DNA of 64,000 nucleotides from a virus. Lineage: Duplodnaviria > Caudoviricetes. A model generated the notes under the pieces. That model did not search any database. It was given only the letters and a program-made list of their open reading frames with translations, and was not told where the DNA came from. Below are positions 6,497 to 14,615 of this stretch, one piece after another. Within the stretch, counting starts at the first letter, position 1. Every line of letters begins with the position of its first letter. The stretch covers positions 296,470-360,469 of IMG/VR virus record IMGVR_UViG_3300022719_000071. One strand, written 5' to 3'. The position numbers were made by a program, and so were the translations under genes.

Positions 6497-9124
6497 ATGA
6501 ACAAACCAAATCTGCTCTTCGAAGGGCTCAGGATCCCCAGAAAGGTGTTCGATCAGTTCCTCTCCAAAGTGGAGGATGAGAAACTATTTCGACTTGGGTT
6601 CGAGGTCGAGTTCTATGCCGATGATGATTCTCTGAGTGGTAATCAAGTTGCCGACTTAAGTGAGCTTTCCGTTCGGGAAGCCATGGAATACTTCTATGAG
6701 CACGATATCAATATAGATAAGATGTATGAGTGGGCATCCGACCATGAGGAAGAATTACTAAGAGAAGCCGGATACACCCGTGAAGAGATTGAGAAAGAAA
6801 TCATTGATGACTGGTTTGATGATAATCCCGACTGGTACCAGGAATATCTAGAAGAAGAAGGCGAGTGGGATGACGAGGAGGAAGAGCCTGCTGAGGATGC
6901 CACTGATGAAGGGACTGCCAGGGAGGAAGTAGAGCTTGATATTCGTAACGGCAGAAAGGTCTGGTCTCGATACGATAACTTCGATAGTAAAATCAATGAT
7001 AGAATTAGCGAGATTTTTGATAACGTTGATATCGCTCAGGCATGGTGGGAAGATAACCGCTGGGAACTTATGCGTGAAAATAATTGGGAGCTAAGTGACG
7101 AGTATCGCCATGATGAAGTGGACGAGGACATCATTCGTGAATATGGTGGCGGTTTAGAAGGCATCGCTAATGATCTGAATGATGTAGTAGATGGTTATGT
7201 GTCTTCGGATGAAGGAGGATACTCTTCGAGCACCGAGAATTGGGTAGTCAAACCAGACGGCTCGCTTTCTGAAAACGGTGTTGAGATCGCATCTCCGATA
7301 TTTCCATTCTTTGCTGGCATCGAAGAAATGGAGAAGGTGTTTGATTGGATTGATCGCAACAGATATTACACTGATGAATCCACGGGACTTCACGTTAGTA
7401 TGTCCTTCACCGAAGAAAAAGCATTCGATGATATCGATTGGGTGAAAGTTGCCTTGCTATCCGGTGAAGAATATATGCTTCAGTTATTCAACCGATCTAC
7501 TAATCAATATACTACGTCCCAATTAAAGAACATGCAGGTTGCTGCTAAGAAAGGCAAGTTGGGCGATTTGAATAGCATGCGTTCCTTCCAAGAACTCAAA
7601 GATAAGTTTGCTGATGGCATCGCAACCGGTGAAAAATACAGTTCGTTCAATCTATCAGACTATGGAAGCGGTGGTCGTGTGGAGTGGAGAATCATAGGTG
7701 GACATCAATACCATCAACTGTTCAATACTGTAAAGGACAATGTTTTGAAGATGGCATTCGCCATGTACATAGGTTCGGAACCCGAGTTGTTCAAAGAACA
7801 ATACTTGCGGTCATTAGGGAGACTGCTTTCTCGTGTTACGGCGACTAAAGATGATCCTTTGAAAAGTAAAAGCGAACTTCTATATGGTAATGATGAAGAG
7901 GCTGCAATCCTATCTCGCAATCCATTGTACAAGTATGCCGTCCAGCTTTTGAAAAGTGACAAATCTATGATGACCGCATACAAAAACGTTACACTGGCTG
8001 GTGAGAGAATGCGAGATGAAGATGCTAATGCAAAACAGAGATTCGAATTCACTAAAGCCATGGGTGTCTTTGCTATGCTAGTCAGTAAAGTTGAAGCTAC
8101 TGAATATACTAAGAAGCTATTCCCATACTTGCAAGAAGAAGCGTACACCGAAAACCTAACGGTCCAACGGATAAGAAAAGTAGCTAGAAGAACTGCCAAT
8201 CACTACGGTTATACTGGTGCGGACTTCAAGGATGATTTGCATGTGGATCCCGTAACTGCATTGGCAACTCATTATCCTATAGCTGATCACATATCCGGTC
8301 TTAATCTATTAACTCGTGCTGCGGTATTGTTTGCTGATATGGATGACACTCACCAGCAACGAAAGATGGAGTTCATGAAGTATGTTCCTGGACTTCGAAA
8401 GTTCACAGCACAGTCCACCACTGAACTCATTCTAGCAATTGCTCTTTCTACCAAGAAGGACCAACAAGAACCAATGGCAGGATCTATATCTGACGCTATT
8501 GTATCATCAGTTGAATCCAATAATCTGGATGAGAAGAACTTGCAATTCATCAAACAACTGATGGATGATATTGGTGTTGATGCTCAGGATGTTATGACCA
8601 ATACGAACTATGACAGAAAGAAGGAAGTTATCCGACAGGTACTAGGTTATGACATTGAGAAAGTAGCCGTCACAGCCGATAATGCATTGCAAGCGATCTC
8701 TCCTGAGTTGATTCCAGAAGTCAGTCTGGCCAAGATCATTACCGGACTTCAACATAACGATGCAGACGAACAATCGGTGGCGGCTTCATTGGCTGCTCTT
8801 TGGATTGGAAGGATCTCTGATAAATTAGAACGTGGAATATTCATCTCAAGTAGAGCCGTAAAAGGATTAAAGATATTCATAGTGACCTATAATCTAATAC
8901 AACGTTGGAACGAAGCGGGAATCTTCGATGCACCTATTGCTAAGAAAGTAATGAAAGTCCTAGATTTCGTAGACCCAGAACTAGCCATAACAGTTTCCCT
9001 ATCCAGGATTAAGGCTAGATTGGGTCCGGAGCAACCTGTTTTCCAGACCCCTCCGAGCAATCCTGTGGCCAACGTTACTGCGTGGACTCCGGAAGTGGCA
9101 GCACGTGGTACCGAAAACCCTTGA
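6497..9124 (+). CDS. Putative amidoligase (COOH-NH2 ligase type 2) with long acidic insertion
   Basis: LGFEVEF, WVVKPDGSL, GVEIASP, STGLHVSMS, KYSSFNL, RVEWRIIGG. Confidence 0.7.
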   Translation: MNKPNLLFEGLRIPRKVFDQFLSKVEDEKLFRLGFEVEFYADDDSLSGNQVADLSELSVREAMEYFYEHDINIDKMYEWASDHEEELLREAGYTREEIEKEIIDDWFDDNPDWYQEYLEEEGEWDDEEEEPAEDATDEGTAREEVELDIRNGRKVWSRYDNFDSKINDRISEIFDNVDIAQAWWEDNRWELMRENNWELSDEYRHDEVDEDIIREYGGGLEGIANDLNDVVDGYVSSDEGGYSSSTENWVVKPDGSLSENGVEIASPIFPFFAGIEEMEKVFDWIDRNRYYTDESTGLHVSMSFTEEKAFDDIDWVKVALLSGEEYMLQLFNRSTNQYTTSQLKNMQVAAKKGKLGDLNSMRSFQELKDKFADGIATGEKYSSFNLSDYGSGGRVEWRIIGGHQYHQLFNTVKDNVLKMAFAMYIGSEPELFKEQYLRSLGRLLSRVTATKDDPLKSKSELLYGNDEEAAILSRNPLYKYAVQLLKSDKSMMTAYKNVTLAGERMRDEDANAKQRFEFTKAMGVFAMLVSKVEATEYTKKLFPYLQEEAYTENLTVQRIRKVARRTANHYGYTGADFKDDLHVDPVTALATHYPIADHISGLNLLTRAAVLFADMDDTHQQRKMEFMKYVPGLRKFTAQSTTELILAIALSTKKDQQEPMAGSISDAIVSSVESNNLDEKNLQFIKQLMDDIGVDAQDVMTNTNYDRKKEVIRQVLGYDIEKVAVTADNALQAISPELIPEVSLAKIITGLQHNDADEQSVAASLAALWIGRISDKLERGIFISSRAVKGLKIFIVTYNLIQRWNEAGIFDAPIAKKVMKVLDFVDPELAITVSLSRIKARLGPEQPVFQTPPSNPVANVTAWTPEVAARGTENP

Positions 9125-9157: not shown

Positions 9158-9496
9158 ATGAGCACTGAAAACGAAAATTTAGATGATGACGGATCCCTGG
9201 TAGTGGATCGTCCACCGGCAGAAGAGCGCAAGGATCTTGCGCCCCCGCCGAAGTACGCAGTAATGCTACTAAACGACGACTTCACTCCGATGGACTTCGT
9301 AATGGCAGTCCTCGTGAAATTCTTCTCGAAGTCTCAAGAGGAGGCTGAGAAGATCACCATGGAGGTACACGAGAAGGGGGAGGGGTTGGCCGGTATCTTC
9401 CCGAAGGATATCGCAGAGACCAAGGCGTCTCAGGTGTGTCACATTGCGCAGTCCAATGGACATCCGTTTAGGGCCGACGTGAAAGGTCTCCACTAA
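9158..9496 (+). CDS. clpS: ATP-dependent Clp protease adaptor ClpS
   Basis: PPKYAVMLLNDDFTPMDFV, TMEVHEKG, AETKASQV, GHPF. Confidence 0.95.
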   Translation: MSTENENLDDDGSLVVDRPPAEERKDLAPPPKYAVMLLNDDFTPMDFVMAVLVKFFSKSQEEAEKITMEVHEKGEGLAGIFPKDIAETKASQVCHIAQSNGHPFRADVKGLH

Positions 9497-9501
9497 ACCT
9501 A

Positions 9502-9532
9502 TTGACTTTACGGAGAACCTGCCCTATATAAT
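9502..9532 (+). promoter_or_regulatory. sigma70-like promoter driving Y-RNA-like RNAs and Ro60
   Basis: TTGACT (9502-07); TATATA at 17-nt spacing and TATAAT (9527-32) at 19-nt spacing. Confidence 0.7.
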
Positions 9533-9536
9533 ACAC

Positions 9537-9612
9537 AAGACCTGGGTCGAAGCTGTTTCGTTATCGTAATTGGTACATTAAAAGCGGAACAGCAGAACCT
9601 TATCCGGGGCTT
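9537..9612 (+). ncRNA. Y-RNA-like RNA 1
   Basis: GTCGAAG motif (9546-52); GCTGTTTCG/CGGAACAGC stem; basal stem AAGACCTGG/CCGGGGCTT; directly upstream of Ro60; ends approximate. Confidence 0.65.
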
Positions 9613-9622
9613 AATTTTTGAA

Positions 9623-9738
9623 GGCTGCGAGCCGAACGACAGATCATTATCGTTCATGTATAAACGGCGAGATGGTTCGATTCCATCATAGGTCTGGCGA
9701 CACGTTAAAATTGGTCTGGCACCAACTTGTTCGCAACC
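9623..9738 (+). ncRNA. YrlA-like Y RNA with tRNA-mimic domain
   Basis: GCCGAACG motif (9631-38); T-arm GATGG-TTCGATT-CCATC (9671-87); D-loop-like AATTGGT downstream of it; closing stem TGCGAGC/GTTCGCA; CAGATC/GGTCTG stem. Confidence 0.75.
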
Positions 9739-9744
9739 AAGAAG

Positions 9745-9786
9745 AAAAAGCCCGGAGGGGACGCCCAGCGCCCCTCCGGGCTTTTT
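9745..9786 (+). terminator. Intrinsic terminator between Y RNAs and Ro60 CDS
   Basis: AAAAAGCCCGGAGGGG...CCCCTCCGGGCTTTTT. Confidence 0.8.
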
Positions 9787-9830
9787 CGTTTCTACAACAT
9801 ACCCGATTGGACATCGGGGAGGAATACATC

Positions 9831-11615
9831 ATGGCAAACTACGCAAGAATTTCGGGCAAGACCCGTCGAAACACTCATCAGACTTCACAGACGAAGGCAA
9901 TCCCTGGTCGTGAAATCGAGATGAAGAAAAATCCGGCTGGAGGCGTGAGCTTCAAGTTGGACGACTTCGCTCGTCTACAGCGATTCATCATCCTCGGAGT
10001 TGAGGGGAACAGCTACTACCAGAGTCAGAAGACCCTGGTGAATCAGAACGTGAGTTCTCTGGAGCGCTGTCTGGACGCTGATCCGTTCCGTGTCATTGAC
10101 ATGGTTGTGGACATTAGTGTGAACGGTCGTGCCTTCAAGCAGGACGCTGGACTCTTCGTGTTAGCTGCTGCCGCTTCTTTCAAGGGTGGCGTGCGCTCCG
10201 GTCGCAAGAGCCCGCCGAACCGCAATCGATTCCAGTACGAGGAGAACTACCAGCAGGCTCTAGCCGAGTATGAGGCTTCCATCGTCATCGTGGACGAGGA
10301 GCACGCAGTCAAGGTTCGTCAGTACGCACTGGAGAAGCTGCCACAGGTGGCTCGTACCGGTACGGCGCTGTACACGTTCGCTGAGTTTGTACGTGGTCAG
10401 CGTGGATTCGGTCGCAGCCTGCGTCGTGCATTCGCAAAGTGGATGACTGACAAGCCGCTAGACAAGCTGGCCTATCAGGCATGGAAGTACAAGAGCCGTA
10501 ACGGCTGGACGTACCGTGACATCATGCGCCTCACGCACCCGGTAACAGACGAGCGTGCACGTTCAGACGTGTTCGGATATATGGTGAAGGGACAGCTACC
10601 GGAAGGTGCTGACCTGAGCAACCCGGCCCTGGCACAGATCGATGCGGCTGAAAAGCTGCTGAAGATCATGACCAACCGTACTAACGTGACCAAGCCGGTC
10701 GTCAAGGAAGCTGTCAAGCTCATCGTTGACCATCGCCTGACTCACGAGGCTGTTCCGTCCGAGCTTCGCAAGAGCCCAGAGGTTTGGGAGGCTCTGCTGG
10801 AGAACATGCCGCTTCAGGCTGCTGTCAGCAACCTGGGTGTCATGACCAGCACTGGTCTGGTCAAGCCACTGTCGAAGGCAGAGCGAAAGATCGTGGAGAT
10901 GCTTACCAACGTCGAAGCAATCAAGCGTTCTCGCATGCACCCGATGCGGTTCTACCTTGGTTCCAAGGTCTACGGCAATGGTCGTGGCGTGAAGGGTAGC
11001 CTGTCCTGGTCGCCAAGCCAGAACATCATGGACGCTCTGGATGGTGCGTACTACGCATCCTTCGGTAACGTCGAGACGACTGGCAAGACACTGGTCATCG
11101 CTGTCGATGACTCGGGTTCTATGGACTGGGCTAACACTTCGGTTCCGAACACTAGTCCATCGGAGATTGCTGCGGCAATGGCGCTGGTCACGTACCGCAC
11201 TGAGCCGAACAGCGTGCTGATCGGTTATTCTGATGGTGTTCGTGAGATGAAGGTGTCTCGTACACGTTCTCGCATCGACAGCATCATGAAGCATGTCGGT
11301 CATGGCGGTGGAACCAACACCACACTCCCGGTGCAGTACGCCTGGAACAACAAGCTGGACGTTGATGGCATCGTGTCCTACACAGACAACAACACCTGGG
11401 GCGCATGCTCTCGGGGCTGGAACAGTAATGGACATGTTACCCAGTGGGTGAATAAGTACGTGGATCGCTTCGGTCCAATGCGCTTCATCAACTGTGCGAT
11501 GGAGGCAAACAGTATCACTGATACTGATGCCAAGAATCCGTACATGTTCGAGCTTGTCGGTGTTGACGCCAATACCCCACGCATCATTAGCGAGTTCCTT
11601 GCTGGTAACCTGTAA
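9831..11615 (+). CDS. rsr: Ro60 / TROVE-vWA RNA-binding protein
   Basis: NPAGGVSF, KYKSRNGWTYRDIMRLTH, MPLQAAVSNLG, SRMHPMRF, vWA MIDAS DDSGSM, GGTNT; GGAGG RBS before ATG 9831. Confidence 0.93.
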   Translation: MANYARISGKTRRNTHQTSQTKAIPGREIEMKKNPAGGVSFKLDDFARLQRFIILGVEGNSYYQSQKTLVNQNVSSLERCLDADPFRVIDMVVDISVNGRAFKQDAGLFVLAAAASFKGGVRSGRKSPPNRNRFQYEENYQQALAEYEASIVIVDEEHAVKVRQYALEKLPQVARTGTALYTFAEFVRGQRGFGRSLRRAFAKWMTDKPLDKLAYQAWKYKSRNGWTYRDIMRLTHPVTDERARSDVFGYMVKGQLPEGADLSNPALAQIDAAEKLLKIMTNRTNVTKPVVKEAVKLIVDHRLTHEAVPSELRKSPEVWEALLENMPLQAAVSNLGVMTSTGLVKPLSKAERKIVEMLTNVEAIKRSRMHPMRFYLGSKVYGNGRGVKGSLSWSPSQNIMDALDGAYYASFGNVETTGKTLVIAVDDSGSMDWANTSVPNTSPSEIAAAMALVTYRTEPNSVLIGYSDGVREMKVSRTRSRIDSIMKHVGHGGGTNTTLPVQYAWNNKLDVDGIVSYTDNNTWGACSRGWNSNGHVTQWVNKYVDRFGPMRFINCAMEANSITDTDAKNPYMFELVGVDANTPRIISEFLAGNL

Positions 11616-11626
11616 CCAGTATCATA

Positions 11627-11659
11627 AAGTAGAGGGGTAGATTTACTACCCCTCTACTT
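11627..11659 (+). terminator. Hairpin after Ro60
   Basis: AAGTAGAGGGGTAG-ATTTA-CTACCCCTCTACTT, 14-bp stem. Confidence 0.75.
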
Positions 11660-11691: not shown

Positions 11692-11718
11692 ATCATTTCA
11701 TTCAGAGGAGTGAAAGGT

Positions 11719-12030
11719 ATGTCCAAGAAGACCTCGAAAGAAATTGCAGCCGAACTCAAAGCCCTTGCTACCAAGTACGGCTGGACGGTGACGGTTCGTG
11801 GTAGCATTCTCACCATTACCAAGCCAATTTCCGGAAACGATGAATTCGTTACTGCTGACATGGAGTACGGAAGCATCCTGAGCCTTCTCCCGTCAACCAG
11901 CCCTGGTAGCATCTGGGGTACAGATGGTGGCGGAGTTGGAGCACTGTCTGCGATGAAATCTGGCGTGTTCACGATGAACAAGTCGGGCGGTAGCAAGCGA
12001 GTCCTGAACGCTCTGAATGTTCTGTCATGA
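11719..12030 (+). CDS. Hypothetical protein
   Basis: ORF downstream of promoter with RBS. Confidence 0.65.
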   Translation: MSKKTSKEIAAELKALATKYGWTVTVRGSILTITKPISGNDEFVTADMEYGSILSLLPSTSPGSIWGTDGGGVGALSAMKSGVFTMNKSGGSKRVLNALNVLS

Positions 12031-12683
12031 CTAAGATGCGAAATTTCGATAGCACAGATCCATCGCTACTGGAAACAGCGGCTCACGATCACATCGTGAC
12101 TGCGTATGCCGTCGTTTACGCCATGGAGGCTAAGCTGTGGACAATAGCCCACGACTTTGATGCCTGGGAAGACCCCAACGTTCGTGTCGTTCGTGATAAG
12201 GTGGTGGCTCGGCTGAAAGCCATCCGCTCCCTCTACAACACTCGCTTTCCCTGGAAGTGCCACAGCTATAGTATTCGTGGCAACTTCAGCGAGAACTACT
12301 ACGGTGATCTACACAACCATGACGTGGACCACGCCCTTAAGAAAGAGTTTGGTGAGAGTGTGTTCTGCGACAGTGAATCCGGCTGGTTCGTGGTGGATGT
12401 GACTCCGACCAAGGTTGAAGAGGTCAAGGAGTTCATCAAGATCAACTTCCCGGACATGGAATTCACCGTGGACAAACTGGACGAGAACGAACTGAATATT
12501 CCAGGAGTCAGTAACTGGCTCAGCGCCAATCTCTGGTTAAAGGAGCGTGAAATCACGGTGGACATGGAATTTCCCAAGATTCAGCCCAAGACTGGTAAAG
12601 AGCTTGAGAAGCTTCTGATGATGGCTCGTAAGGCTCTTCACAAGACTGGTTTGCCGAAAGAGGAAGCAATCAAGCTACTCTGA
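12027..12683 (+). CDS. Hypothetical protein
   Basis: ATGA overlap with upstream gene. Confidence 0.65.
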   Translation: MTKMRNFDSTDPSLLETAAHDHIVTAYAVVYAMEAKLWTIAHDFDAWEDPNVRVVRDKVVARLKAIRSLYNTRFPWKCHSYSIRGNFSENYYGDLHNHDVDHALKKEFGESVFCDSESGWFVVDVTPTKVEEVKEFIKINFPDMEFTVDKLDENELNIPGVSNWLSANLWLKEREITVDMEFPKIQPKTGKELEKLLMMARKALHKTGLPKEEAIKLL

Positions 12684-12746
12684 GGATTTGCCCATTATAA
12701 ATGATAAATATGGGTTTAGTGTTTATCATTGTAGGGATATAACCAT

Positions 12747-13616
12747 ATGGACATAAAGGATATACGTAACCAATCAGAAAAAACTATGAGAATTCTTGTC
12801 GTTCAGGGTGGCACTAGAAGTGAGAACTCTTGTCCTGGCAGAAATACAAAAATTCGTTCTATGGTTGATTTAATATTAGAGTCTTCTCCGGATTACGTTA
12901 ATGTTGATGTTCTTGATTTAGCAGTAGAGGGTGATGGAAAAAGAATTATTCAGCCGTGTAAAGGATGCGTAGGTACAGCAGGAGGTTTTCATTGTCATTG
13001 GAAATGCACTTGTTATGGTCCCAAATCAGATAGCTCAGACCTTAATGATATAATGCACGATGATAAAGTATATGACAGATTAGAAATGTCGGATGGTATC
13101 ATGTTTATGACTCCCATTCATTGGTTTAAGCCCAGTGGTCCAATTTTAGCTATGCTTGATCGATTGGTATGTGCTAGTTTAACTATAACAAGAGAACAAG
13201 CAAAACGTCTAACTGATAACGATTTAAAAAATCCAGAAAAAACGATGGCATTGGAAAAGTCCGGCAAATACGACAATCTTAAGAAGAATCACTTAGGAGG
13301 TAAAGTAGCTGCGGTGTTTGCTCAAGGTGATGACGGTGCTGATGACTATTACAACACAATAAACAAGCCAAATACAACACCTGGAAACTTTATGGAAGAT
13401 GTATATTCTAGTCCCATAGATGCTGTTATTCCTTTGGTTAAAGCTCTAAGATTTATGGATATCGAAGTTCCTGATGATTTAATCGTAGGGGTTAACCGGG
13501 GTAAAGGAAAGGATTACGCTGTAAATGACGAAACCTATAAGTCAGCCGAAAAGTATATGGCTATTCCCGTGAACCTCTTTTTGAAATTAGTCAACAGAAT
13601 TAATGATCTTCGTTGA
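12747..13616 (+). CDS. Flavodoxin-like / NAD(P)H-dependent FMN reductase family protein with Cys cluster (iron-sulfur flavoprotein-like)
   Basis: ILVVQGGTR, PCKGC...CHWKCTC, DGIMFMTPIHWF, AMLDRL. Confidence 0.75.
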   Translation: MDIKDIRNQSEKTMRILVVQGGTRSENSCPGRNTKIRSMVDLILESSPDYVNVDVLDLAVEGDGKRIIQPCKGCVGTAGGFHCHWKCTCYGPKSDSSDLNDIMHDDKVYDRLEMSDGIMFMTPIHWFKPSGPILAMLDRLVCASLTITREQAKRLTDNDLKNPEKTMALEKSGKYDNLKKNHLGGKVAAVFAQGDDGADDYYNTINKPNTTPGNFMEDVYSSPIDAVIPLVKALRFMDIEVPDDLIVGVNRGKGKDYAVNDETYKSAEKYMAIPVNLFLKLVNRINDLR

Positions 13617-13662
13617 ATGTTAGGATATCTATAAAATCGTTGCCCGCTACCGATGATATACT

Positions 13663-13692
13663 CCTGAACCGGATAAATACTGGTTCAGGGGT
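13663..13692 (+). promoter_or_regulatory. Late-type TAAATA promoter in loop of an RBS-covering hairpin
   Basis: CCTGAACCGG-ATAAATA-CTGGTTCAGG; 3' arm overlaps AGGGGT RBS. Confidence 0.6.
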
Positions 13693-13700
13693 ATAAACGT

Positions 13701-14615
13701 ATGACAATTAGAACTTACCTACCTGCTTTTGGATTGGGCATGCTGCTCCTTACGGCTTTATCCTTAGCAACAATAGCCGCATATCAAAGTATCATAGGTC
13801 TAGCAGACCTTTTCGCTGCACGTAAAGAAGTCGTTGTAATCATGGCTGTCTTTATCGAATGGGCGAAATTGCTATTTGCCGGTTCACTTCATATGTTTTG
13901 GAATTCACTTCCCTGGTGGAAGTGGATTGGTATAGCTATTGTGGTTATCCATATGGCGGTAACCAATATCGGAATTTACTCCTACCTGTCTTCTGGCTAT
14001 CTTCTCCAGGAAGCTCCTGTAGCGGCTCTAGAGCGGCGCATCACTGGGATTGACCAGGACATCAACCAACAGAAGAAAATCGAAGAGGAAGCATCCAGGC
14101 AAATCTCAGCTATGGATACAGCCTACCAGCGGTACGTTGAGGGGCTATACATCCGTCGTGCTGAACAATACAAAGCTACTAATGCAGAATTACGTGCACA
14201 GTTGGAAAAGCAACGTGATAAGGCCAGAATGGTAATTGATGGTCTTGAAGAAAAGAAGCGTGGTCTAACAGAAATTAAGGTTGATAATGCTGCCAAGCTG
14301 GGTAGCATTGAGCACATCTCTGCTTTTATTGGGTCTGACCAAGAGAGCATCATGAAGATGGTTGTTCTGTTCACTATCTTGCTTATGATGGGTCTTGATC
14401 CTGCGGCTGTTCTGTTGGTCGTAATGTTCACTCATTTATTAAATAAATGGATGGGGGTTAAAAATCCAAAACCGGTTTTAGAAGTGGCTGAGAAGGCCAA
14501 AGAAGAGCCTAAGCCACTGGATAAAAAAGCTGAAGAGCAAGCTTACCAACAACATTTGAAGGACATTGGATACATGGAAGGATCTCCTGGGTGGTACCGT
14601 AGAAAGAAGCTATGA
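13701..14615 (+). CDS. Membrane protein with coiled coil (DUF4407-like architecture)
   Basis: Three N-terminal hydrophobic segments, coiled coil, further TM containing GLDPAAV. Confidence 0.6.
   Translation: MTIRTYLPAFGLGMLLLTALSLATIAAYQSIIGLADLFAARKEVVVIMAVFIEWAKLLFAGSLHMFWNSLPWWKWIGIAIVVIHMAVTNIGIYSYLSSGYLLQEAPVAALERRITGIDQDINQQKKIEEEASRQISAMDTAYQRYVEGLYIRRAEQYKATNAELRAQLEKQRDKARMVIDGLEEKKRGLTEIKVDNAAKLGSIEHISAFIGSDQESIMKMVVLFTILLMMGLDPAAVLLVVMFTHLLNKWMGVKNPKPVLEVAEKAKEEPKPLDKKAEEQAYQQHLKDIGYMEGSPGWYRRKKL

Follow-up and report, generated by a model that had tools for sequence, protein, structure and literature searches.

The window analysed here is a stretch of 64,000 nucleotides, the final 64 kb of the virus record IMGVR_UViG_3300022719_000071, whose 360,469 bp and CheckV completeness of 91% mark it as a jumbo phage. 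In this window, a gene for a homologue of the RNA-binding protein Ro60 is separated from a clpS gene by a gap of 334 nt, and the question raised by the locus is whether this gap encodes Y RNAs that serve as partners of the phage Ro60. Particles of Ro60 and Y RNA have been studied chiefly in animals, with regard to autoimmunity and the quality control of RNA, and in a small number of bacteria; little is known about their use by phages beyond one study of 2025. An earlier reading of the locus, made from its letters without database searches (hereafter the sequence-only reading), had placed Ro60 directly behind two Y-RNA-like RNAs expressed from one promoter. All sequence features that it listed are present where it had located them; its observation was confirmed, and its interpretation found partial support. 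Positions 9502–11615 are a real Ro60-Y RNA module of known kind, and we put the probability that both RNAs are Ro60 partners at about 0.8. This assessment is carried by the identity of the gene, the conservation of the locus, the covarying structure of the RNAs and their strict linkage to Ro60, always on the same strand.

Ro60 and two conserved RNAs upstream of it

The open reading frame at 9831–11615 (plus strand; P0001) encodes a protein of 594 amino acids matching the Pfam families TROVE (a ring of HEAT repeats; PF05731, E 2e-27) and, behind it, the Ro60-type von Willebrand factor A domain vWA_Ro60 (PF25045, E 1.4e-27). Full-length alignments were obtained with Deinococcus Rsr (2NVO, E 8.8e-76), human Ro60 (E 1.3e-70) and Xenopus Ro60 (E 1e-67), and the structures 2NVO, 9NEN and 1YVP were all matched over their full length. 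The motif WKYKSRNGW...RLTH aligns K219, R223 and H236 of the phage protein with K170, R174 and H187 of Xenopus Ro60, which we take to be RNA-binding residues. These three positions and D426, S428 and S430 of the DDSGS motif (MIDAS, the metal ion-dependent adhesion site) are invariant in an alignment of 36 clade members, in agreement with the full Ro60 with KYxxRxGW...RLxH motif and MIDAS that had been read from the sequence. Judged by this homology, the identification of the frame as Ro60 (Rsr) can be called secure. An insertion of ~45 residues (KGGVRSGRKSPPNRNRFQYEENYQQALAEYEAS...) at residues ~117–162 (window ~10179–10316) separates two stretches that align with Deinococcus Rsr. The nearest homologues found by BLASTP, all on metagenome contigs, are 72–78% identical to the phage protein. 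A Ro60 homologue is present in 365 GenBank phage records, mostly actinophages in which it is annotated as 'Ro-like RNA binding protein', and every one of these is <35% identical; a blastn search against GenBank phages left the locus unmatched. TROVE proteins have been described in some jumbo phages (Iyer et al. 2021).

The gap upstream of Ro60 contains, in this order, a promoter-like site, a hairpin-type RNA (unit 1, 9538–9612, plus strand), an A/U-rich spacer, a second RNA with a T-arm-like element (unit 2, 9622–9740, plus strand) and a terminator; the end of unit 2 is 91 nt away from the start codon of Ro60, and both are encoded on the same strand. For comparison, DNA was collected from upstream of the closest Ro60 homologues and from clade members found in metagenome scans. 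The order of promoter, unit 1, unit 2 and terminator is kept upstream of Ro60 in eight metagenomic contigs (L127–L131, L048, L049 and L059; L054 is a duplicate of L048), the Ro60 proteins of which are ~50–80% identical to that of the phage. These eight and the window are the nine clade members that were compared element by element.

A covariance model built from six clade sequences (R1) was used to search both strands of the window and of 99 loci with a Ro60 gene (619 kb altogether) at E≤1. It produced 68 matches, spread over 46 of the 100 sources and all on the Ro60 strand. Of these, 56 are upstream of the gene (the median distance between RNA end and start codon is 215 nt), and the other 12 are a short way downstream. 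The matches in L002 and L007, two loci fetched with a 3,000-nt flank, are upstream ones. Unit 1 scores 79.3 bits with this model, and unit 2 is matched in full length (42 bits, E 2.5e-8) with its middle taken as an insertion, which indicates that the two units have a common handle. In the model-fitted alignment of the 54 distinct sequences, 93.5% of the cells are paired, compared to 65% after shuffling and 36–45% when the partners are slid, and 19 of the 21 pairs show changes on both sides. A second model made for unit 2 (R2), which includes the window sequence in its seed and gives it 120 bits, found 33 matches, again all on the Ro60 strand; here 97.2% of the cells are paired and 19 of 23 pairs are compensatory, including all five pairs of the T stem and all seven of the upper stem. 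The covariation across relatives that had been suggested as a check of the sequence-only reading is thus present in both RNAs.

A third model (R3) was built from 30 hairpins of distant phages, whose Ro60 proteins are mostly 32–37% identical, with the window and its clade excluded. Its sole match in the 64-kb window is at 9537–9613 (45.4 bits, E 1.1e-8), that is, at unit 1, and it recovers unit 1 in all eight relatives. R3 is mostly a sequence model, since RNAalifold on a MAFFT alignment of the 30 distant hairpins gave the lower stem only. Among the loci searched, the unit 1 type is the commonest RNA beside phage Ro60 genes. The suggestion that unit 1 is a divergent class of Y RNA therefore stands insofar as it forms a separate, shorter class, but there is nothing odd about it.

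The idea that the T arm and the hairpins are decaying remnants of tRNA genes whose motifs arose by chance could appeal to the lack of an Rfam match and to the non-significant single-sequence fold of unit 2, but it is effectively refuted by covariation and linkage: compensatory changes occur in every helix, the architecture is kept in nine contigs, the independent model R3 matches the window at E 1e-8, and 68 out of 68 R1 matches are on the Ro60 strand.

Structure of the RNAs and relation to known Y RNAs

The architecture of unit 1 was derived by eye and from a listing of its pairs. Its lower stem, CCUGGGU/AUCCGGG, is followed by the motif GUCGAAG (9546–9552; GTCGAAG in the DNA) with a bulged C at 9548 and by an internal loop. 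The upper stem has 9 bp (9552–9560 with 9583–9591, GCUGUUUCG/CGGAACAGC) and leads into UUAUC at 9561–9565 (within TTATCGT, 9561–9567) and a small apical stem, GUA/UAC. Unit 2 repeats this handle. Its Ro-binding motif, GCCGAACG at 9631–9638 with a bulged C at 9633, sits in a stem whose pairs covary (AGG..GCGA/UCGC..CC, with the helix A-G-C-[C]-G-A over U-U-G-U-U), and the upper stem CAGAUCA/UGGUCUG (9640–9646 with 9712–9718) is again followed by UUAUC at 9647–9651 (within TTATCGT, 9647–9653). Both the GNCGAA(N)G and the TTATCGT motifs are thus found in each unit, as had been noticed before. Above the handle, unit 2 opens into a multiloop with a V hairpin (9651–9666), a T arm GAUGG-UUCGAUU-CCAUC (9671–9687) and a hairpin GUC-UGGC-GAC (9692–9701).

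The T arm had already been recognised in the sequence-only reading. Its stem varies among the nine clade members (GGUGG/CCACC, UGGGG/CCUCA, GUUGG/CCAAU and GUAAG/CUUAU) with compensatory changes at all five pairs, and its loop is UUCGAUU, UUCGAAU or UUCGACU. The D position is occupied in all nine by a hairpin of 2–5 bp with a GG-containing loop, again with differing stems (GAUC/GAUC, GUCC/GGGC, UGUC/GACA and GCCC/GGGC). Between the two elements, five of the nine (L049, L059, L129, L130 and L131) have an acceptor-like stem of 6–8 bp, which in this comparison is absent from the window, L127, L128 and L048. The sequence AATTGGT, which the sequence-only reading had reported in both units, is indeed there in this phage, but it is not conserved in relatives and its copy in unit 1 lies in the non-conserved apical loop. 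Its proposed role as the D loop of unit 2 was rejected, because the element in fact belongs to the 3' strand (UGGUCUG, 9712–9718) of the covarying upper stem; the better candidate for a D-like element is the GUC-UGGC-GAC hairpin at 9692–9701. An alternative in which GUC-UGGC-GAC forms the acceptor stem and UUGGU..ACCAA the D arm was also discarded, since the UUGGU..ACCAA hairpin is not conserved in relatives and UGGUCUG/CAGAUCA pairs in all of them. The description of unit 2 as a permuted tRNA mimic is consequently borne out in the order of its elements, with the T arm before the D-like element as in YrlA, but not in the rest, as there is no acceptor-like stem and the D-like hairpin has only 3 bp and a 4-nt loop. 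From its predicted structure, unit 2 would display at most a tRNA 'elbow', with a possible contact of T loop and GG loop, which is below a tRNA mimic of the YrlA grade.

Phage Ro60 genes with upstream Y RNAs are known already (Chen et al. 2014; phiLo, 2025). YrlA-like RNAs close to Ro60 were reported from 254 bacteria and 22 phages, together with a second, hairpin-type Y RNA, YrlB, that has GNCGAAN0-1G in common with YrlA; in M. smegmatis both Y RNAs are cut from a single precursor upstream of rsr (Chen et al. 2014, PMC4201824). The phage RNAs resemble YrlA (RF02553) and YrlB in lying <4 kb from Ro60 on the same strand, in carrying GNCGAAN0-1G near the 5' end within the stem formed by the RNA ends, and in comprising one tRNA-like RNA, with the T arm before the D-like element, and one plain hairpin RNA. 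As in M. smegmatis, both are located upstream of rsr in what appears to be a single transcription unit, and the stem-loop at 9671–9687 of unit 2 shares with YrlA the T-loop sequence of tRNAs. There are several differences as well. Unit 2 of this phage lacks the acceptor-like stem, though the stem is found in five of nine clade members, and the D arm of YrlA is of the GCUCA..GGUAGAGC type, whereas unit 2 shows a 3-bp stem with a UGGC loop (9692–9701). The handle of the phage RNAs has an upper stem and UUAUC, both of which are missing in the Rfam YrlA consensus, and the order in the phage is hairpin RNA first and tRNA-like RNA second. At other phage loci, RF02553 scores 28–46 bits, below its gathering threshold of 69 bits. 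The R2 match at 1717–1859 of L007 coincides with the stretch that Rfam scored as YrlA (46.5 bits), which ties unit 2 to the YrlA lineage.

In Thermus phage phiLo, Ro60 was shown to bind the two Yrl RNAs encoded upstream of it and to form complexes with the polynucleotide phosphorylase (PNPase) of the host (NAR 2025, PMC12135203; PDB 9KOP and 9L5Y). The locus studied here is similar in that Ro60 is preceded by two Y-RNA-like genes, those of phiLo having been identified via CGAA motifs. As far as the proteins are concerned, which were all that was compared, the two Ro60 are only remotely related (E 1e-4, versus 1e-67 to 1e-76 for Deinococcus, human and Xenopus).

Across the 54 family members, the consensus reads cGGGyCGaAg....gGUUAUC....ca..aacUUGuCCg, which resembles the Y RNAs and stem-bulge RNAs (sbRNAs) of animals. 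Vertebrate Y RNAs have the helix GGUC[C]GA/UUGACU, and the helix of unit 2, A-G-C-[C]-G-A/U-U-G-U-U, has the same layout. As in metazoan Y RNAs and sbRNAs (RF00019, RF01656; PMC4726728), the terminal stem of the phage RNAs has a bulged C in G-N-C-G-A and a 3' strand (A)ACUUGYCC, and the upper stem is immediately followed by UUAUC. This pentamer is conserved in the loops of sbRNAs and vertebrate Y RNAs, where it is needed for activity in DNA replication (PMC4726728); in the literature searched, no paper connects it with bacterial or phage Y RNAs. With RF01656 (gathering threshold 38), L074 (47.4 bits) and L066 (40.8 bits) pass, and L023, L090 and L010 reach 37.0, 35.5 and 28.8 bits, whereas with RF00019 (threshold 38) the family members peak at 29.9 bits. 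In contrast to metazoan Y RNAs, the GUG-CAC motif is absent from the upper stems of both phage RNAs (GCUGUUUCG/CGGAACAGC and CAGAUCA/UGGUCUG), and the promoter and terminator are of bacterial type and not those of RNA polymerase III.

This likeness may be due either to common descent or to convergence on the shared surface of Ro60. It can be proposed tentatively that the hairpin Y RNAs of phages, among them unit 1 and, in unit 2, the handle, share a genuine common ancestry with animal Y RNAs and sbRNAs, with UUAUC as part of the inheritance; towards this proposal we remain rather sceptical. If it were correct, the classification of bacterial Y RNAs as 'not homologous' to those of vertebrates (Kowalski and Krude 2015, PMC4726728) would need revision, and UUAUC, whose only known significance is that animal systems require it for DNA-replication activity, would be part of an ancient Ro60-Y RNA module. 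In either case, the animal-like handle provides a concrete link of phage to metazoan Y RNAs that can be tested. What is new at this locus is that its RNAs are outside the Rfam models, that the tRNA-like top is reduced to a T arm plus a GG hairpin, and that the handle is animal-like. The locus thereby adds a clade of giant-phage Ro60 whose partner RNAs escape the Rfam models, and the compact handle of bulged-C helix, upper stem and UUAUC is found again next to Ro60 in 46 of the 100 sources (99 loci and the window).

A probable small RNA operon, its possible role and alternative explanations

The promoter-like site upstream of unit 1 (plus strand) consists of TTGACT at 9502–9507, a 17-nt spacer and TATATAAT at 9525–9532; it was read from the sequence, is kept in all relatives and agrees with the sigma70-like promoter proposed earlier. 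A consensus scan had missed it because the second hexamer has no T at position 6 when the spacer is 17 nt. Promoters of this class, TTGAC(T/A)-N17-TATA(A/T)AT, are located directly before several of the tRNA operons of the phage, so that the Y RNA unit looks like another of its operons for stable RNAs. The genome contains 26 copies of TTGAC(T/A)-N17-TATA(A/T)AT(A), those in the window being at 9502 and 42511 (minus strand), and many copies directly precede tRNA operons or other structured RNAs free of open reading frames. The spacer between the two RNAs (9613–9621, plus strand) has the A/U-rich sequence UAAUUUUUG and is a likely processing site; six clade members have an A/U-rich spacer of 8–14 nt at the equivalent place. 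Behind unit 2 follows an intrinsic terminator (9744–9790, plus strand) made of a 20-bp G+C-rich hairpin and UUUUUCGUUU (−39.6 kcal/mol, z −6.5), and relatives have a terminator hairpin at the equivalent place.

With these elements, the gap between clpS and rsr can be read as a small RNA operon. Transcription would start near 9538 from the promoter of the tRNA-operon class and would mostly stop near 9790 at the terminator, giving a precursor of ~250 nt that would be cut in the A/U-rich spacer into Y RNAs of ~75 and ~119 nt. Both RNAs would dock on the ring of the phage Ro60 by their common handle, that is, the terminal stem with G-N-C-G-A-A in its 5' strand and the bulged C, continued by the upper stem and the single-stranded UUAUC. 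The variable tops could then act as effector modules, an A/U-rich loop in Y RNA 1 and an elbow-like T arm with the GG loop in Y RNA 2, by which the RNAs might tether Ro60 to host enzymes or gate its access to them, in analogy to the complexes of Rsr, Y RNA and PNPase in Deinococcus and Salmonella and to phiLo. RtcB and RNase PH/PNPase were not found in the whole phage genome; since the phage has no PNPase of its own, that of the host is one candidate partner, and another is enzymes that recognise the tRNA elbow. In consequence, the decay or repair of structured RNA would be steered during infection. Translation of Ro60 itself probably depends on transcripts that read through the terminator, in which case the RNAs would be made in excess.

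Several points weigh against this interpretation. Taken alone, unit 2 folds no better than shuffled sequences (z −0.6), and minimising its energy yields a fold other than the one derived by comparison. The counts of pairs come from model-fitted alignments and are hence biased toward structure, with a margin that is large (36–46% paired with slid partners across R1 and R2, versus 93–97% for the real pairs). Likewise, of the 54 distinct family members, 40 have UUAUC and 53 have UUAYY, the former frequency being inflated since the models that selected these members contain UUAUC. The Rfam models YrlA, Y_RNA (RF00019) and sbRNA (RF01656) were not reported for the window at their gathering thresholds, nor at E≤10 on 9480–9850, so that the Rfam check put forward with the sequence-only reading came out negative and the window's own RNAs differ in this respect from both metazoan families; the matches obtained at E≤10 (Thr and His leaders etc.) were rejected as artefacts of the terminator hairpin, and there was nothing else. 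The start of transcription, the processing, the binding to Ro60 and all functions downstream of it are what we infer from the sequence. Finally, no separate promoter for Ro60 was detected by the scan or, in the 40 nt past the terminator, by eye, and the RNA region could therefore also serve as a leader.

The last point is the basis of the best of the alternatives, in which the region's main role is that of a leader in the Ro60 mRNA, acting in cis: Ro60 would bind its own leader and control terminator read-through or access to the ribosome binding site, and stable RNAs acting in trans would not be made. Besides the missing promoter between terminator and start codon, a small hairpin speaks for it, CCCGAU/AUCGGG (9802–9823, plus strand; fold z −1.4, weak), which abuts the Shine-Dalgarno sequence GGAGGA (9818–9823) of Ro60. 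A hairpin at this site is also found in L047, L048, L049, L059, L128, L130 and L131, mostly as ACUUCU-GUGGGA-GGAAGU with the Shine-Dalgarno sequence enclosed, and may control the translation of Ro60. We nevertheless consider a leader as the main role improbable, for three reasons. In other phages (L018, L028), the same type of RNA is placed behind Ro60, experimentally studied homologous loci yield stable RNAs (PMC4201824), and RNAs of the family are present in tRNA arrays far from Ro60, where a role as leader is impossible. One of these is the third R1 match in the genome of this phage (277488–277620, corresponding to L134:1501–1633; 34.6 bits, E 1.7e-6), ~18.9 kb before the start of the window and exactly in the interval that separates tRNA-Phe from tRNA-Lys. 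The common handle with UUAUC is present in it, together with a hairpin that resembles a T arm (loop UUAGAGU) and an acceptor-like stem of 7 bp; from its place between two tRNAs it would be released by the tRNA processing enzymes. The other belongs to the cultured Sinorhizobium phage Phosso (PV764938.1, 469 kb), which has a Ro60 gene: an unannotated hairpin Y RNA, GCGAGCCGAUA..GGUUAUC..CCACUUGCUCGC, lies at 420661–420739 (L142:1501–1579) between tRNA-Arg and tRNA-Leu, far from that gene. In Phosso, R1 has no match adjoining Ro60, and the one in the tRNA array is the only one. Phosso could become an experimental system, and the practical yield of the analysis is two covariance models as well as the finding that such RNAs also hide in the tRNA arrays of phages. 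A role as leader and a role in trans are compatible with each other.

The sequence-only reading had further considered unit 2 a tRNA decoy against anticodon nucleases, to which other tRNA-targeting defences may be added. The canonical UUCGAUU T loop and the GG-loop hairpin of unit 2 would suit a decoy, as would the genome, which has 42 tRNA genes, a CCA-adding-type nucleotidyltransferase, one Rnl1-type and two Rnl2-type RNA ligases. However, the Ro-binding stem stands where a tRNA has its anticodon arm, so that an anticodon-loop nuclease would have nothing to bind, the acceptor-like stem is missing in this phage, and unit 2 is seen neither by ARAGORN nor by the Rfam tRNA model. A decoy thus lacks a structural basis, and we regard it as very unlikely.

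Genomic surroundings

Directly upstream of the Y RNA unit lies clpS (9158–9496), encoding a ClpS adaptor, which is also found near Ro60 on the contig of P0006. Farther upstream, an 875-aa protein with an amidoligase-like domain is encoded at 6497–9124. Downstream of Ro60, a terminator scan identified a 14-bp stem with a T-rich tail (11627–11659, plus strand), and the conserved genes that follow (11710–14612) gave uninformative results with Pfam and PHROGs apart from a weak FMN_red match. ARAGORN detected zero tRNAs or transfer-messenger RNAs (tmRNAs) within the 64-kb window. Public sequencing runs containing DNA of this phage comprise three DNA runs from one study, with no RNA run listed among them. 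Outside the window, at 78941–79376 of the genome (minus strand), ARAGORN proposed a permuted tmRNA-like candidate that lies directly behind a TTGACT-N17-TATAAATA promoter. On an unrelated Ro60-bearing metagenome contig, a GOLLD match (L074:5225–5711, 144.6 bits with a gathering threshold of 150) is situated ~1 kb downstream of Ro60.

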